Notes: generated from the sequence alone by a model not told the origin. Counted from the stretch's first letter, positions 2,801 through 52,988 are shown. The stretch: DNA of 64,000 nt from Tubulanus polymorphus (GCF_964204645.1 NC_134026.1:1697950-1761949), one strand, 5' to 3'. Numbers and translations: made by a program.

Positions 2801-3704
2801 ATGAAGTTCTTCGTTGTAATTCCGTTAATGTTACTCATATTCGCAAATACGTGCGTACGAAGTGAAAAGGTCAGTAAAGAATAAAGTCATAAATATTTTT
2901 CATTAATAAAGTTTCTGCCTCCCGCAAATTGAGTGTTGTTCGATGCGCATCATGATTTTCTTCGTTGATTTCTCGAATGTACTAAATAACACGTAATCAG
3001 ATTTCGTGTGTTGCCAGAATTTCAACTTGATATATAAAAAATGTAATGAAAATATATCTATAAATCATATGAAAAATATCAAAAAAGTAACTGATATATA
3101 GTTTATAATCATTTTCGACAATTATTGGGTTTGGTTGTCCTGATATCAAATTCCATAGGAATTGTACGTATAAGAAATTAGGTAGAGACATGAAACTACA
3201 ACATTATCGCAAAAAAACGAGTCAAATATGAATAAAAAAACTGAAAAATCTTCTGTTAACTGTCTAAATTTAGGCTGATGATTTGCATCAAATCATGAAA
3301 TAATCTCATCGGCGAAAGATGAAAATTTGAAAAAATGAATTTTCGCCCACTGGTGACTGATTAGTTTCGTTATTTTCTAGGAACTAGAAATAACCAGTAG
3401 CGCTGACGTGGCTACAGAAACCGCTTTGAATTACGATGAGCACCATTTATCAATCGTATCCGATAGAAACTGCAGCCGATCAGAATCAACATCCATCCAA
3501 CTCAGTATCAGAAACAATCCGTACTCAAACTGGGTGATACCGAAATCAAGTCGCGAAGCTCTGATACTGATGTGTTCGTATGGTCTAACCGCTGCCCTCA
3601 CTCTGACTCCGTATGTCACCAAACTATTCGTAGAAAGCTCTGTTTACTTAGTAACACGCGCTTTCACTGGTATCACCGCACTCGTCAACTCGTCAATATC
3701 TTAA
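2801..3704 (+). CDS. Orphan ~130-aa protein with signal peptide; exons 2801-2869 and 3381-3704
   Basis: MKFFVVIPLMLLIFANTCVRSEK ends at an AAG|GTCAGT donor. The TTTTCTAG| acceptor joins in phase 0 to ELEITSSADVATETALNYDEHH...LVNSSIS*. AATAAA at 3735-3740. Confidence 0.65.
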
Positions 3705-4094
3705 TGGCTGTGATCGCAAAGTCTTGCAAGCTTTAATAAACTTAAATGATACAACATCTGGAAGAAAATGTGTATGAATAGTAATTGTTTAGTTCTTGTT
3801 GATTATATACATCAAAATTAAACCATATAGTGTTGATAGTTTTACGTTTTATAACAAAAGTCCATGGTCCAGTTCCGCAGTGGCAAGTTAGAGTTAACTC
3901 TGAACTGAGCCCCACGCGTCAGAACTATCAGATTCTGATTGAATGATTGTAACGTCAATGTCATATCGTGTTCTCATGTTACCAACACCATACTGGTGGT
4001 CACAATACTAAGATTTCCGAAATATAGAAATTGCCATGATATTATCTTAACTATGACAATAGATCGAGTATCGAACCCCGGATATATCGAGCTG

Positions 4095-4315
<221 letters not shown>

Positions 4316-5685
4316 CATCACTCGATCTTAACCCTTTCGTCAATCTCAAAAAGAACAAAAGAAAATGTGTAGTAATCTTTCAAACGTCAAACGCGCAAAC
4401 AGAATAAGACAATACAAAAAAGACTGACGACTACACGTATGCATGTTTTTCACTTAATATATCAAACGATGCGTCCGGCTAACCTTGATAAAACGGAAAT
4501 ATGATGTGATGCTGGAGCACAAAAACCTATTGGACCTAATTGCGAGTGTTGCCAGAATACATTCCATATCCTCATCACCCCACAATATATCCCTCAAAGA
4601 GAAGGTACTTTCGCGAGCTAACAAATTACTTGAATTTATTTCCTGGCTTCCTTTAAAGAATTTCCCTTGTTTTAATAGTTTTTATTTTGTAACTTCTGCA
4701 ATTATCATTTCATATTTCAATGATTTCTTTTTTTTAATCCCAAGACGGAATACACCGCCCCCCCCCCCACCTCATCAGATGGGAATGAGTATCACCGAAA
4801 CCTGTTGATTGCCATTCACAAGTTCTATATACATCTATAATATTCCTCTAGCTCGACCCAATAAAGAATAACGAACGTGTGAGAGAGCTTTATGAATACA
4901 ATTTAGTTTTTGATTTCTATTAGATTTTTAATGGGGAGCAGGGAAAAAATGACGATTGGCATTGAATCTACAGAAATGAGAGACATGTATTTACAGCTCA
5001 GGGAAACAGTAATTACATGAAGTAAAAGCATAACTATGATTAAATCACGTGCACTTCGTGAAAAGTAATTAGGATAATGCACCATATCACGTGATGGATG
5101 GACAATGATGAAGATACCTATATCCATTTGTCTTCTGGCTCTTAAACGAAGTATGACAGCACCGACAAAAGAAAGGTAAGACCATCTTATCTCCAAAAGA
5201 TAAATGCAAAGATAAACAAATAAATGTGAGAAAATTCTAGTATATAGAAAATTGATGAAATCAGTAGAAAGTTGTAAGCTTTAAGCGGGGCGATAATGAT
5301 AATAATTTATTCACTTATTAAGTGTAGATTATGATAGAATGATCTCCACGTTTTTTACGGAATACGAACATAAAGACCGTTAATTAACTGAGATAAGAGT
5401 GATGAAAGGTTGATTAAAAGCTAGTTCTCCTTTAAGGTAGGTTTTAAGATCACGATTAAGACTGAAATTGGAAGGGATTCTTTGATAGAAGATAATTCGT
5501 GGGAACAGGAAATTTTAATGTATTTCAAGTATGAGATTTAGATTTCATAGCTTATTGGATTTAGTAAATAGAAGTAGAAAATAGAATCAAGTTCAAGATA
5601 CATTTAAGATATTTGAGTCTAAAAAGTCGAAAGGTTTGAATCCAAAATGAACCAAACTTTATTGAAGAACTTGTTACGCATATAC

Positions 5686-39215: not shown

Positions 39216-39628
39216 CTACTTCTTTTCATAGTTTGAATATATGTATTTCCAAAGCGAAAATCCATGAAATAATATCAGTAATAGAATACCGGTGATGTAT
39301 AGCGCCATGCATATCTGCCACCAAAGCAATGCTTCTTTCGATAATTTCTTCGTTCTTTCTCTGCTTTTACTGATCAAGCAAGAAACTGATGTTGAGGGTG
39401 GCATTTCTTGGATCCCCACAGCGTTATTAGTGGACATGGTTGAATCTTTGTCATTAGATATTTCGACATTTCTCATAAGTATGCCCGAGGTCATCTTTAT
39501 CTAAAAGTGAATCAAAGCATATATTTAGTATAAGTGGAGTAATTAAGGAAACAATAGTTTTTCTAGCTCAATCGTCGGTCACTCAATCTGAAGATTTTAG
39601 CAATTTGCCTAAAATAGTTTACCTTCAT
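39216..39628 (-). CDS. Small orphan membrane protein (~96 aa), tail-anchored topology; exons 39628-39623 and 39500-39216
   Basis: ATG AAG|GTAAAC donor and TTTTAG|ATA AAG ATG acceptor are in frame. Single hydrophobic segment ALLWWQICMALYITGILLLILFHGFSLW followed by KYIYSNYEKK*. Upstream GTAAGT donor at ~39727. Confidence 0.55.
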
Positions 39629-40479
39629 AGTTCACTTGCCTTATAAGTACAAAATGACTACAACTTATTGTTATGTTTAATGATCAATAAAGTTATCAAT
39701 CTGATTATTTCTAATAATTTACTTACCATCATAACGTGTAAATTTACATTGTGTGTTTACGCATGTATAGTTTACACATGTCCTGTGTGGTTTATGACTG
39801 ACTTGATTCATCAACATGCGCCTGTGCCTGTGGTGAATAAACACAGCACTTCCACGGAGTTGCGGCATTCGCTCATAGGGGAAACAGGTTTTAATAGTCT
39901 AAGTAAATAATGGTTTTATTATGGGGGTGAATTGTCAAAGTAGATGTCACCACCATACAGAAAATCTCATGACTCGAACGTAAACTCAGTATTTCCACAA
40001 CTGATTGAAACTTAATTCATCCACAACTCCATTTAAAACCAATCGAAATGAAAATAACACGTCTTACAAAGAAAATCTACAGTTTATTTAATTACTATGA
40101 TAATTACAATATAGAAATAGAAAAACTTCCTACAAATATACCCCGCCAGCAGGAATATTGAAAATAGAACTGTCTTGTATTTTAATTATTGAGATCATTA
40201 GAATATTTACAGATCAACGCTATAGAAATGATAACATAATTATCTCATATATTGCACAGTCAATTATATGCTAAAGCTTTTACAAATATTCATCAATAAT
40301 CATAGAACAAATGATTTTTAGTAATCAATATGACTTGTTATTGTAAGATATTGCAGTTTAACACGCTAGGATAGAATCTAGTGCGAGTATTAAGACCTAC
40401 AGTTTATCACATATAAATATCATATAAAAACAATGGATCGATTTTAAAGTCAATGTCTCTCATCTATCGTATTCAAGGA

Positions 40480-43400
40480 TTACTTGGAATTTTCATTGCT
40501 TTTTTGATTAGCCTTGATTTCTGCTCGAGATTCAGCCTCTTCGATCATACTTGTTCCCTAAAATGATAAACCGCCGTAAAGATCTTATTACACTCAAGGA
40601 GGCCAAAGAAAAGAAAGCAACTTGAAATTTAGGAAACGTACCCAAACATAAAATGTTGCAGCACCGGCGGATACATCACGGACTTGTTCCAGATCGAACT
40701 GTGTGAAATACATCTTAGCTTTGCGAGCGATGTTGATATCAAGTTTCGAAGCGTCCAGACCAAGACAGCGCCGTTTCAAACTTTCCTTACCAGTTTTACC
40801 AACCAGCGCTTGAACTGCCTTCCAAACCTATCGCAAGTAATACACAAAAGGGAAAGTAGACATAATACCCAGTAATTGGGTGATTGAACAACAAGCCATT
40901 CTTGAATTGTAATCAGGAAAATTTTTTTCTCTTTTCTCACCTTGGTTTCTTTTTCCTTGTGTCCAAGTAAGAAGAATGTCCCGATCATAACCGTGTGGAC
41001 TGCAACTGGAGGTTTCTGATAGCTGCGAATCTCGGCGACAGTTGTCTGTTTCAGTTCTAGAATTTCAGCACGAATTCTCTCTAAACGTCTCAACTGAAGC
41101 AACAGTTTATTCGCTTCAATCATCTCATTCGTCAACGCCGGTTCAAAACCATTCTTTTTAACATTGTCAACAGCTTTCTCTAAATCTTGCAGCACACGTC
41201 GATCCATAGCTGATAGCAGCTCTAAATCGAAAATAACCATGTCTTTAATATCGGCCTTTTGATTTGTTGTCGAGAAATCACCTTGATGCTACATTTACCA
41301 ACACACAACTTACTTTCTTTAGCTTTAAACTGTTTGAGGAGTCGTTCAGCTTTGAATAGATCACCTTCATCATCGGGAAGCTGAGCTTTTTTAAATTCTC
41401 CGACTGATTTTGTAAGTTTTTCTCGATCACGAGATTTGATCGCGACTTTCAACTCGTAGCGAATCCTCTTGTGATTATTTTCTATGATAAGATACAACAA
41501 ATCAGCCGTATTCATATCAATCAATTCTACTATATTCTTGTCTAATGTGCCACTAATTGTTCTGATTATCTACAGATTTACACATCATACCTGTAGCACG
41601 AGCACGTGCTGCCTTTTCTTTATCTTCTGCTTCTTTTCGAGATTTTGCATCTTTCGCATTCCTGATTTCTTCCTGCGCTAGCCTCAAGTCTTCCTGCGCT
41701 TTTTGTTCAGAACTCATTGCCTCCTGCAAATATAAATGATTATATGTTCTTAGATTTCATCATTAATACATCTACTTAAATTGCACTGAATATAGGAAGG
41801 ATACTAACTATGGCTTTAACTTCGGCTTCATTTCCTTCTTGTTCCTCTCGTAGACGTCTTTCTTCTTCTTCTTTCATTTGTTTTTCTTGTAAATCTTTCA
41901 GTCGGCGGATCTCTTCCAGTTCCTCCTAAAATTCAACATTGTCACCAAACAAATGAATAAATCGTATACGACAAATGAAACGGAAGGTATAAACATCTTA
42001 TTCAACCAGAATCATATAATTATAAACTATATCCAAAATTCATAAATTTTTTAATATATTCATGAATGCAGAATCACACCATATTTCAACTGTTTATCTT
42101 AAAACTAATATTCCAAAAATGGCATATATATTATATAATATACAGACATAAACGATGAAATGTGTATTCATGGTCAGGCCCAGTTTCATAAAAAAGGTTT
42201 GAAAATTTAAATCATCGAACAGTTTAACTTATTTTACGAAACTAGGCAAATTTCATAAAGATACATTGTGTCTCATGCAGGATTTGTGCAAACATTTAGT
42301 GATTTTTTCACATTTTCATTCCTCTAAACTACTAAGGTAAGAACAATTTGATACCACCAGTGCTACAACAAATCATAAGTGCATGTATAATGGACCAATT
42401 TCCAAATGGTATGTAACAATGCATGATCTGATTTAAACAACTGTAGCTTAATTACAATTGTTAACCCCGGTGCACTTGAAAATCACTAATATAAATTTGA
42501 TTATATCCATTCTATTTATTGTATGGGTTTTTTGTACCGACTCCTCTTTTACAAATGACTTCAAGTTAACCTCTTCACCGAGTTCTGCATGTTGTTCATC
42601 CTCAACTACACGAACTTCTTCCATATCTTTTTCTACCTGCTTTTTATACATCATCATACAGACATTGAACTACTGTACATTCGGTCCGACTGATCCACAA
42701 ACGGATTGTTAATGAACGAACGAGTTTAACCTCCTTACCAGGGCTTTACGCTTTCTTTCCCTCTCTTCTTCCTCTTCTTTTTCTCTCACAAGATTCTCTC
42801 TTTCTGCTGCTTCTTTTGCTCCTCTCTCTAAATAACATAATTCATAATGATAACATAATTCACCGAATAACAACAGAAAAATTCTAAATGTATCTTATTT
42901 AAAGAAAATTATTCATCCATTAGATACAAACCTTCTTCTTCCTTCAATCTAAGGATTCTCTCTTGTTCAGCTTCTTTTTCTTGTTTCTTCTTCAGCATTG
43001 CCATCTAAAATATGGGTCAAGATCAAATCTATTATCACCTTTTCATAAACTGTTTCGGTTACAAGAGCGTAAAGTTTTTACATTAATATCAGTAGAAGAA
43101 AGGTTTTGTGAAACATGCAAACAGATAAAAGAATTACCGAGATCCCTTTTCAGAACTGCTTGAATTTTAAACAGAAAATTTTTAAGAACTGATCGCTTAT
43201 TGTAAATCAACACAGAGCTATTAATGAATGAATCAATTAACAGACCTCTTCTTCATTTCTCCTACGTTCCTCATCTTCCTGACGTCGCTTTTCCACTTCT
43301 AACCGTTTTCTGTTCGCTTCTTCCAACCTCTGTATGAATCGTTCTCTTTCTTCCGCTTCTGCCATTTCTTTTTCTAATTTACGTTTGGCCCTTTCTACAA

Positions 43401-44439
43401 ATGATTATCAGAAATTATTCAAAAATTTCTGGAAAAATGCCAAGATATTCATACAGCATTTCATTATACTAACCTTCCTTTTCTCTCTTTTCTTCGTATT
43501 CTTCCTGTAGAATTTGTTCTTTGCTCGCAACGTTACACAGGTCAACTTCTATCTCGGGAAATGTAACTCCGCTACCGGGCACAGCCCTCGATCTCAGAAA
43601 CTTTTCCCATCGGCGTTTTGAAAATAAATCTTGATGCACTGCCTGCATAAACCACCTGTTCAATAGATATCGATATATGAACAAATTCAAGTCATTCAAT
43701 TCCTTCTACTTTCTATATTTTTTAAAGATGATAATTCAAGAAATTTGTAAAATCTTCACCTGGCCTGATCTTCGGTAATGGTGTCAGTTTGTTGTCTATC
43801 TAACATCGAGAATTCCCATCTGAAATCTTGTATCAAATAATAGCGTCTGTCCATCTCAATCAGTACATCATATAATTCACATTTTTCTACCTCTAATCCT
43901 AGACATGTGTAACCAATGGCTGCTCTCGTCTACAATATAAGAAAATAGATTACCTTTAATCAGCCCTTGTAGTAGTATTCTGAATAACAGATGAGTTCCC
44001 CTACCTAGATACTAAACTACCCTTAGTCGATACCATGACTAATGGTACTCCCATATCATTTAACGTTTTCTAATTAACTTGAATTACGGTTCCAAACAAC
44101 ATCAAGAGAAAAGAAAACCTTTTTTTCGCCATGTTTTCATCATAATTTTTCATTTAAGAAAAAGAAAACAGTAGGTACATGTAGGCTTAATAAAAACCAG
44201 ACATAATCGATCAATATTTCAAGAATGTGCACAGCAGGTTTATAATGCCAGACAGTCAACTATCACAACATGCACTATCTCTCAATGTAATTTACCTGAG
44301 CTAAGCTTATTCCACCAATTCGTATATCAGCATGAAGAGACTGCACCTCTTCGACGGTCAGGTAGCTTTTCTGTTCAGTATCGCAGAATTCAAAAACCTC
44401 AGATTGAAGCGCACACCTTTCAGATAACAGATCACCCAT
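40480..44439 (-). CDS. EF-hand-like + E/R/K-rich helix + dynein microtubule-binding-domain-like protein (no motor domain)
   Basis: Starts MGDLLSERCALQSEVFEFCDTEQKSYLTVEEV. Contains FSMLDRQQTDTITEDQAR and charged exons at 43500-41590. C-terminus ILELKQTTVAEIRSYQKPPVAVHTVMIGTFFLLG..|VWKAVQ..LDASKL..FDLEQVRDVSAGAATFYVW|GTSM..NSK*. The exon junctions I checked are GT-AG and in frame. Confidence 0.85.
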
Positions 44440-45094
44440 TGTGACGAATGTTGTCGATTAATAGTTGTTTTTGCTGAAAGATATAATTTTCCCAAATTAT
44501 TTCTATTTCAGTTGCTGTATAAGCTGTGTTACAGAAATTCAATTTTTGCTTGAATTGAATTGATGACTGTGGTGATCCAAGTTATAAACAAATGAAATAC
44601 GTGTGTTAAATAAGCGTTTGAACCGCTGGCAACTACAACTTAATCTAATTATGTTGTAAAACTACTCCTTTCGATGATTAAATGTTATATTCATAATAAT
44701 CTACTCCCTATTTAATCAGAATTTGAACTTTGTAAACATGTTTTAGGTTTGTTTTGACAGTAAAACATTCATTTCCGGGTTTTGACTTTCTAAAACTGAA
44801 ATCTTGCTCTGAAACAGATTCTTCGACTAATCCTCATATTACCATAGAAAAGGGTTACAATGCTGATATTGTTATTGGAAAAACATCTATATTGTATTGC
44901 AATCAATTCTAAAACGCTAATTCAAAATAAGACTCTATTGATAGTTTTTCTGTTCGGAAATGATTCTCGTCGGTTCAGTTACGATTCCTCATATAGATCT
45001 GTCAAAAATGTCCGAGGTGCTGCAAATTAATTTTCTGCCACATATTAAACCAGTACTATGCCCTGTTGATTGATTGAGTCAAAACTACCTCACA

Positions 45095-49943
<4,849 letters not shown>

Positions 49944-50926: not shown

Positions 50927-52988
50927 TTAAGGTAGAGGGGTGCCTGCTGTGTACGGATCAATTAACAATTGAGAAAATGCGGTCACTTGCTCGGTACCTC
51001 TGACTTCGTGGTCTAACAATGGTAATTTAGAAATGTTGAAATCCTCGTATAAATCTTCAATCTGTAAGGAAGAATACAGAAACCAATCTGCGTAAGTTTG
51101 ACGACGATTTTTTCTGGCGGACAGATTTCAGCGATGATGAATGTCGTACTCACTTGATCTAAATATTTGGATTGTATTTTGTGTCGCGACGCGCACATTT
51201 TACATGGTTTCTCTCCCTGACCGAGAAACAACAACTGATTCACTACGATATTATGCGTATCGATGCCACATTTCGTAAGTTCCTGAACGAGTCTTTCAGT
51301 TTCATAAAGCGATAAAAACTCCGCTATACAAACGCACACGAATGTCGTCTGGTCCTGAAATCATCCGACAAAGATCTCGATGAAATTGCGATTTGAATTT
51401 CTACTTCAATTATGAATCCCGGGTAGAACTTACCGGATTTCTAAACTGTTCATTAACCTGGCGTATGACTGGTAAAATATCTTCTAATTTTTTCGTCATT
51501 TCATCAGCGTTTAATTCTTGCATACCTAACATACCGGCTATCTAAATGATAAATGAATTTTCAACAATATCACAAGACAGCTTATTCTGGCTGCATTGAA
51601 CGAATACCCAAACTGTTTTCTTTCCTAACATTTTGGGTTGATTTTTCAAATAAACTATACATCATTTTTCAAATAACTCTGAAGACAGTTGTAAGTATTC
51701 CACTCAAAATGTAAGGAAAGAAACAATCGCATTTGTTTAAATTGATATTGTGATTTTTACTTCTATGTTCAAGAAATAATCCATTTACAATATTCTGGTT
51801 GCAGTTTGCTGAAACTAAATCCACGAATCATATTGAAACGTTCCTAATTGAAACTTACTTGTGAAATGAATGGACTAATTTGATTTTTTAGCCGTAATAA
51901 TTTCGAAAGTCCTTTTTCAACAACAGCTGGGAATGAAAGCAAGCGTAGCGTATGACCAGTGGGGGCAGTGTCGAATACAACCACAGAGAAATTCATACTT
52001 TTCACTAACCTACAATCGACACAATAACAGATTTACTGGTGTATGTCAAAACCAAGCTGTTTCATACTAACAATATACATTCTGTATTAACTGCATACAA
52101 AAATATATATAAAGTAAAATGAATATCTAGCTTTACAATGATATTTTTTTCAATCAAATATAGGCTACCTCATAACTTCAGCATAACTCATAGCTTCATC
52201 GATTCCGGGAAAAGCACCCATCAATTCCTGCATCATTCCTTGTGCTAAATTTCCACCTCCACCACCTAAATATCAATATCAGTTACGATACCACAACTCA
52301 TGTTTACAATACACAATTCACTTATAGAATACTATTTTGATTATCTATTGCAATTAGGCCCTATTCATTTTTCATTAATACTTTGCGACATTCACCTTCT
52401 TCAAAATATTCTTCCGGCAATTCGGAAAATCCCAAATTAGGATCTATCTCCTGAAGAAAAAATTTTATCGTCAGTAAAAGATTAGTAGTACATTTAGGTT
52501 TATTCATATAGAAATATAGATATCAATCAATAGAAGTCACAAGTTACATACCATAGCATAGAGGTTCTCAAATCCTTTGACTTTTGTCGGAACTTTACTA
52601 AATTTCTGATCAAATGCATCGGAAATATTATGAGCTGGATCGGTAGATATAATGAGAACATTCTCTCTTACTTTACTCAACTGTACAGCTAAACTACAGC
52701 TGAAATAACAATATTCATAAAGCAACGTTTTAACATTAGCCCGATGTGATGTGACATTTCATCCATTTCATCAGTTCTGCTTTTGCCAACACCCCGTTAC
52801 GCGAACACAACCGTATGGCGTTCAACTCGGTTCAAACGAGTCGTTATTACGGTGAGGTTTTCATACCTGCAGGTGGTTTTCCCAACTCCTCCTTTACCAC
52901 CAACAAATACCCATTTCAATGATGTCTGGTCCAAGATATTCTGTAAATGAGGAGGCAACGGTTCGTAATCGTCACCCGCGGCAGCCAT
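50927..52988 (-). CDS. GET3: ATPase GET3/ASNA1/TRC40
   Basis: [80 protein letters not shown], and final exon IEDLYEDF...AGTPLP*. Confidence 0.97.

Follow-up and report, generated by a model that had tools for sequence, protein, structure and literature searches.

A motor-less animal protein joining an EF-hand-like head to a dynein-type microtubule-binding domain

The locus and its transcripts

The window analysed here is a stretch of 64,000 nucleotides from the nemertean Tubulanus polymorphus, and its minus strand carries, at 40480..44439, the coding span of a gene with 12 exons, GT-AG introns and a single stop, which specifies 589 amino acids. From the ATG at 44439 to the TAA that ends at 40480, exons 1 to 12 lie at 44439-44296, 43929-43760, 43655-43474, 43394-43246, 43004-42932, 42827-42739, 41925-41809, 41723-41591, 41481-41314, 41221-40941, 40827-40642 and 40557-40480. 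The spliced product matches XP_074641535.1 (P0040) residue for residue, an entry that NCBI lists as an uncharacterised protein. A first-pass annotation, made from the DNA alone, had given this gene its own start and stop, and the 12-exon model bears this out; the C-terminal peptide and the two EF-hand loops that it quoted are present as written.

All 11 introns occur in spliced contigs of run X2 and 9 of the 11 in those of run X4, which comes from a separate study (the records of the runs used carry neither RNA label nor tissue). The contigs extend the 5' UTR to 44661 and give 3' cover to about 40200, and no joint in them leads out of the gene: the transcripts thus join the EF-hand exons to the C-terminal exons, as the hand-spliced model had assumed, and show no link to an AAA motor. 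A 13-exon model with an extra exon at 42636-42571 was ruled out because the spliced joint 41924-42738 skips it. The 813-base intron that holds this in-frame, 66-base candidate is covered by a low-depth X2 contig (41897-42761), possibly a minor isoform or intron retention. In the 5' UTR region, one X2 contig has a loose end at 44551, away from splice sites. An X-box scan gave 10 loose matches in the window, none of them at 44440-44700.

The flanking genes are separate, as first proposed. Downstream lies a distinct spliced transcript, 39847-38558 on the minus strand (intron 39501-39726); its ORF at 39500-39216 ends in a hydrophobic segment and encodes a small membrane protein. Upstream, on the opposite strand, lies an N-terminal exon of FAM91 (45593-45946). 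Only one Walker A motif, at 52898, was found in the six frames of the whole window, a count made on unspliced frames in which introns could hide others. The window also contains a GAT/ATC trinucleotide repeat of about 250 bases at about 4060-4320.

Domain layout and homology to the dynein microtubule-binding domain

The N-terminal part of the protein (residues about 10-148; 43526..44412, minus strand) is a calmodulin-like head with four EF-hand-shaped motifs, delineated from AF2 helices and structural matches, both of which give the paired helix-loop-helix fold. These roughly 150 residues resemble calpain PEF, calmodulin and FCaBP (Z 8-9.3), and their identity across phyla is 48-60% over most of the length. 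Pfam EF-hand matches XP_074641535.1 below the cut-off only, and among the 47 sequences that share the architecture (hereafter the EF family), a canonical loop with ligands at positions 1, 3, 5 and 12 occurs in 0/47 at EF1 and 0/47 at EF3. Asp does hold loop position 1 in 40/47 (EF1) and 45/47 (EF3), position 12 is Gln in 35/47 and 28/47 respectively, and position 5 is mostly Lys; an acidic loop is missing from the EF2 and EF4 sequences. The degenerate loops described at first are thus set in a calmodulin-like fold, and the calcium modulation proposed with them finds no support in the loops. Judged by these loops, XP_074641535.1 is not a calcium sensor, and the head may be read as a conserved protein-binding head.

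The head is followed by a charged spacer (residues 150-345; 41613..43522, minus strand), in which E, D, K and R make up 64% of the 196 residues. Opposite-charge pairs at i,i+4 number 68, where shuffles give 38.9 (z 6.2), with no excess at i+7, which is the mark of a single alpha-helix and upholds the earlier view of this region. The AF2 helix of the spacer is interrupted, at low confidence, at 192-211, and the spacer length is 140-267 residues in 44/47 sequences. An alpha-helix rises 0.15 nm per residue; modelled as one helix, the spacer could span about 29 nm.

Next come two helical hairpin repeats (residues about 354-461; 41064..41479, minus strand), which the first-pass annotation had recognised and which AF2 supports at pLDDT >90. 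Their self-similarity is weak (51 of 2000 shuffles were equally good), and they are common to the EF family and the other architectures that carry the module described below. The last repeat helix stands where the distal CC1 of dynein would be, ahead of a dynein-type microtubule-binding domain (MTBD) with a short CC2-like helix (40513..41063, minus strand; H1-H6 are residues 462-564, with the helix continuing to about 579). There is no long antiparallel CC1/CC2 stalk: the CC1-like helix, 439-463, continues into the repeats, and the chain stops 25 residues past W564. In the EF family this helix is free of proline in 29/29 non-redundant members, and the stretch after the last tryptophan has a median length of 23 residues. 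As proposed, the AAA ring is absent (no AAA match in the Pfam scan), and since the 589-residue ORF is complete without an AAA part, it leaves no room for a motor. AAA+ families are likewise not listed among the 77 long relatives considered below.

Homology of the C-terminal domain to the dynein MTBD is secure, on the strength of family profiles and fold. The single sequence is not significant alone against the mouse MTBD (6rzb_C, phmmer E 0.093), and Pfam MT (PF12777) matches neither the single exons nor the whole of XP_074641535.1; among relatives, it appears as a sub-threshold match in 3 of 9 and passes the cut-off in one, P0063. The dynein likeness first proposed is weak in the single sequence and clear at the level of the family and of the predicted fold: with a profile of 10 C-terminal modules, all 35 of the rows returned are dynein heavy chains or MTBD constructs (best E 1.6e-8), and a profile of 43 family sequences reaches the yeast dynein MTBD at E 5.3e-14. 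A reversed-sequence control gave one weak match in 233 (10.5 bits). In a search of 48,161 chains, 5AYH ranks first against the AF2 model built for residues 354-579 (pLDDT 92.7, pTM 0.79), with Z 17.8 and an rmsd of 3.4 over 141 residues; unrelated rows begin at Z 6.7. An Atlas model of the domain has TM 0.82-0.86 to MT clusters; an Atlas feature search without the MT families gave no usable match. Against the yeast MTBD, the AF2 model has rmsd 2.5 for the low-affinity form and 3.9 for the high-affinity form, a slight difference and a weak sign against the tether reading considered below.

The domain shares with dynein MTBDs (5AYH, 3ERR, 6RZB, 6KJO, 8I3J) the six-helix fold with CC1- and CC2-like flanks (Z 14-17.8, rmsd 2.5-3.4), the EIRS..PP motif, the H3 Trp, the H6 Ser, the H1 glutamate and several basic residues, as well as a short H2-H3 loop without a flap. 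There are a number of differences: (i), XP_074641535.1 has no AAA ring, helical repeats replace CC1 and a short tail past the last Trp (median 23 residues) replaces the long CC2; (ii), the H6 arginine site is acidic, a GKTGK insert is present and most members of the family fall below the Pfam MT cut-off. Identity of the domain to dyneins is 18-19%.

An animal family and a mobile C-terminal module

The architecture described for this one gene recurs across invertebrates: a whole MTBD-like domain is present in 47 of the 49 head-bearing sequences collected, a number in which isoforms are counted and which becomes 29 after 90% reduction. These sequences come from ten animal phyla, with about 50% identity across phyla, and their sources are sponges (Sycon, Oscarella), an orthonectid (Intoshia), nemerteans, a brachiopod, a bryozoan, annelids, molluscs, hemichordates, echinoderms, amphioxus and a tunicate. 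Intoshia linei, which retains an EF-family gene, is gene-poor and heavily ciliated. Among the matches that carry a name, a minority of the 1,764 clusters found with the module profile, none is from a vertebrate, arthropod, nematode or cnidarian.

That profile collects the 1,764 clusters at E <=0.001 and 163 at 1e-30, of which the best 150 were inspected. Of the newly found long matches (at least 400 amino acids, n=77), 51 have an Ig-like_KY domain, mostly together with a transglutaminase-like core, and the others have VWA, CLCA, EGF or CD20-like domains; the C-terminus is nearly always close to the module. The occurrence of the same C-terminal module on KY/hillarin-like and membrane proteins marks it as mobile. 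Among 72 non-redundant long relatives outside the EF family, 29 have an N-terminal myristoylation-like motif and 11 a predicted membrane segment ahead of the module, 40 in total, as compared with 0/29 members of the EF family. Many KY/hillarin-like proteins (PF01841 with PF23265) share the repeat-plus-MTBD module, and three molluscan examples are 47-50% identical to XP_074641535.1 over it; unlike them, XP_074641535.1 has neither a transglutaminase-like nor an Ig-like_KY domain in the Pfam scan.

Several individual relatives deserve mention. A myristoylation-like motif begins 27 of the 48 KY/hillarin-like relatives (P0053 and P0048 included), P0053 has five matched stretches, and in P0065, P0072 and P0075 a CARD domain precedes the module. 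In CLCA-like proteins of amphioxus (P0044-P0047, P0049, P0052, P0080), the module follows a predicted membrane segment, and this fusion is found in several Branchiostoma species; the CD20-like P0067, the EGF-bearing P0070 and the VWA-bearing P0069 have the same C-terminal arrangement.

In a tree of 101 module sequences, the members of the EF family group together, evolve slowly and by and large track the species tree. There are exceptions, as three membrane proteins and four unlabelled sequences fall inside the group and one divergent EF member falls outside. The tree has a midpoint root and no dynein outgroup, and the direction of module transfer is therefore not readable from it.

Tubulin-facing residues, solved relatives and possible function

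Residues were numbered by alignment to 6rzb_C (chain range 3270-3418), and conservation was counted over 150 non-redundant sequences (29 from the EF family, 121 from outside) drawn from 181 with a whole domain. K466, E472, R474, K505 and K516 align to mouse K3298, E3304, R3306, K3334 and R3342, while Q467 and Q508 stand in place of K3299 and R3337. At H6, D553 replaces R3382 with reversed charge, and R552 precedes it by one residue (codons 40675..40680, minus strand). The H1 glutamate E472 (codon 41031..41033, minus strand) is invariant in 150/150, in sequences gathered with a profile that itself contains it; W504 is the only position as fixed, and most surface positions vary. Position 553 is acidic in 81/150 and basic in 12/150, and in the EF family acidic in 28/29; position 552 is basic in 100/150 overall and Arg in 26/29 EF-family members, and position 556, the second basic H6 site, is basic in 10/150. 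Elsewhere on this face, the EF family has K at 466 in 26/29, a basic residue at 474 in 28/29, K at 505 in 25/29 and a basic residue at 516 in 29/29; outside the family, position 466 is D in 42/121 and K in 31/121. Net charge is +7 in XP_074641535.1, with a median of +4 in the EF family.

We take mouse E3304 and R3382 to be the sites of E3390 and of R3469/K3472 in Dictyostelium dynein. There, E3390 (H1) forms a salt bridge with alpha-tubulin R403, and R3469/K3472 (H6) with E416 (excerpted text of PMC4298687). With E472 invariant and position 553 mostly non-basic, one tubulin bridge appears kept and the other lost or shifted. R552 may substitute for the H6 arginine, given that the Chlamydomonas dynein heavy chain 8glv_Cn likewise has an Arg one place before this site. 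Alternatively, the invariant E472 may be structural rather than tubulin-pairing. This residue pattern at E472 and H6 is the main evidence both for and against microtubule binding. A conserved, family-specific surface that dyneins lack consists of the GKTGK insert in H3-H4, H484, Y476 and GAATF.

Solved structures place the motor-less fold both on and off microtubules. Five non-dynein chains match at Z >=7.6, all from ciliary or microtubule structures: 7JTK chain C, residues 440-590 (Chlamydomonas radial spoke, Z 12.3), 9FQR chain Xl (bovine sperm axoneme, Z 10.8), 9YA2 chain L (Toxoplasma ICMT structure, Z 9.4, rmsd 3.1 over 125, 10% identity), 9E5C chain 2e (T. brucei axoneme, Z 8.3) and 7JRJ chain I (Chlamydomonas radial spoke, Z 7.6). 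The four axonemal chains share the motor-less MTBD fold at only 11-19% identity and are not among the 60 sequence matches listed for the family profile. 7JTK chain C and 7JRJ chain I are presumably both RSP2; by the entry titles, the radial-spoke chain belongs to the spoke head and neck, off tubulin. From its length, we guess that 9FQR chain Xl is EFCAB5. RSP2 has GAF and calmodulin-binding motifs (PMC3383722, in excerpt), which are not seen in XP_074641535.1. EFCAB5, for its part, also carries an EF-hand and sits in radial spoke 3 (available portions of PMC11779644 and PMC12423330); its DPY30 motif is absent from XP_074641535.1, which has no Pfam or fold match to DPY30 or GAF.

9YA2 chain L has 162 modelled residues and is numbered to 1457, for which ICMAP1 is too short; by length and numbering, the chain is probably ICMAP2. 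The latter has 1,678 amino acids, its resolved domain covers 10% of the length and follows the 8-nm microtubule periodicity, and its loss separates the two microtubules (PMC12819142, in the text available), a text that does not mention a dynein likeness of this domain. The likeness to our protein lies in a non-motor domain of similar fold, set on the microtubule at 8-nm spacing; as differences, it is a dimer between protofilaments 3 and 4 and its score is in a Z range where helical folds match by common arrangement. In the literature searched, we found no account of the EF family or of a motor-less dynein MTBD, two radial-spoke structure papers of 2021 that may note the likeness lying outside the search; the fold likeness is unmentioned in the accessible parts of PMC10266980 and PMC10774353. 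The "MTBD-like" element of PMC12366701 is unrelated and, from the part available, a TTLL motif.

Our preferred hypothesis, held with even confidence for and against, is that XP_074641535.1 acts as a static tether and keeps a partner some 25-30 nm away from the microtubule. The domain would dock at dynein's intradimer site on tubulin. Its contacts there would be E472, paired with R402/403 of alpha-tubulin, and the basic face of H1/H3 (K466, R474, K505, K513, K516, K520-R522). The helical repeats would fix the CC1-like helix in one register, so that binding would not be ATP-cycled, and the acidic H6 arginine site suggests that affinity may be modest. The single helix would act as spacer between the MTBD and the degenerate EF-hand head, whose binding to a protein partner would depend on calcium little or not at all. 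The ciliary role first suggested has indirect hints in its favour, and a location in ciliated cells is our guess from the distribution. Several observations are suggestive of such a tether: the homology to the dynein MTBD and the predicted fold, the invariance of E472 and the basic H1/H3 face on dynein's tubulin side, the ciliary or microtubule origin of all five non-dynein chains, the 40 of 72 lipid- or membrane-linked relatives, which would fit a membrane-to-microtubule link, and the EF-family gene kept in Intoshia linei. Speaking against it by comparison, D553 takes the place of the arginine expected to pair with alpha-tubulin E416, the equivalents of K3299 and R3337 are Gln, and the radial-spoke chain with the same fold lies off tubulin. 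MTBDs on an unsuitable stalk, moreover, can decorate microtubules poorly (PMC6629372, as excerpted), which might apply here.

In an alternative reading, a dynein-derived fold would have been reused as a protein-binding or structural module without tubulin binding, as seems to be the case for the radial-spoke chain, and the protein would be a subunit of an axonemal or cortical scaffold. We consider this rather unlikely, while giving it real weight: the reversed charge at H6, the family-specific surface foreign to dyneins (GKTGK, H484, Y476, GAATF), the shared fold of the radial-spoke and axoneme chains and the 51 of 77 long relatives that are KY/hillarin-like all agree with it, hillarin being linked to septins (PMC3081291, in the part available), whereas the invariant E472, the basic H1/H3 face and the probable ICMAP2 domain sitting on its microtubule do not. 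A tether or brake competing for dynein's site and switched by calcium, as first proposed, in which calcium binding by the head would free or hide the MTBD, seems improbable. The calmodulin-like fold of the head, the Asp at position 1 of EF1 and EF3 in most members and a site shared with dynein by geometry could accommodate it, against which stand the complete lack of canonical loops at EF1 and EF3 with their Gln at position 12 and Lys at position 5, the non-acidic EF2 and EF4, and the roughly 196 helix residues between head and MTBD. Finally, a relic dynein heavy-chain fragment or a mis-joined gene model has a negligible chance: it has in its favour only the homology to dynein, and is refuted by the spliced introns, all of them in contigs, and by the architecture recurring in 47/49 head-bearing sequences at about 50% identity across phyla; the low identity to dyneins (18-19%) and the lack of any Walker A in the window frames except at 52898 also argue against it.

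A known domain is here carried, in variant form, by an old, uncharacterised animal family, and it has spread as a mobile module. Beyond the tether reading of the single protein, we suggest, somewhat short of an even chance, that early in animal evolution the stalk tip of dynein became a portable microtubule anchor without a motor, of which the EF family, from sponges to tunicates, would be the most conserved carrier. Many lipid-anchored KY/hillarin-like proteins, and membrane proteins of the CLCA, CD20-like, EGF and VWA kinds, would have gained the module at their cytosolic end, where it would tie membranes to microtubules at dynein's site. Such proteins would make up a class of microtubule-associated proteins that has yet to be described, and Toxoplasma ICMAP2 would be its solved analogue, so far unremarked. 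To our knowledge, the dynein MTBD has been studied almost solely as the terminal part of a switch driven by ATP. A small, stalk-free MTBD kept since sponges would show binding without a register shift, and a family in which the H1 glutamate is retained and the H6 arginine lost would separate the tubulin contacts that dynein uses for binding from those used for signalling. Such an MTBD would, in addition, assign a function to the C-terminal domain, so far unnamed, of many invertebrate proteins that at present bear the wrong labels trichohyalin-like, caldesmon-like or KY-like, and would point to a new link between membranes and microtubules.

A minor observation concerns the EF-family orthologue of Branchiostoma lanceolatum, P0043, which has a reverse-transcriptase stretch within the spacer and is probably a gene-model fusion with a retroelement.
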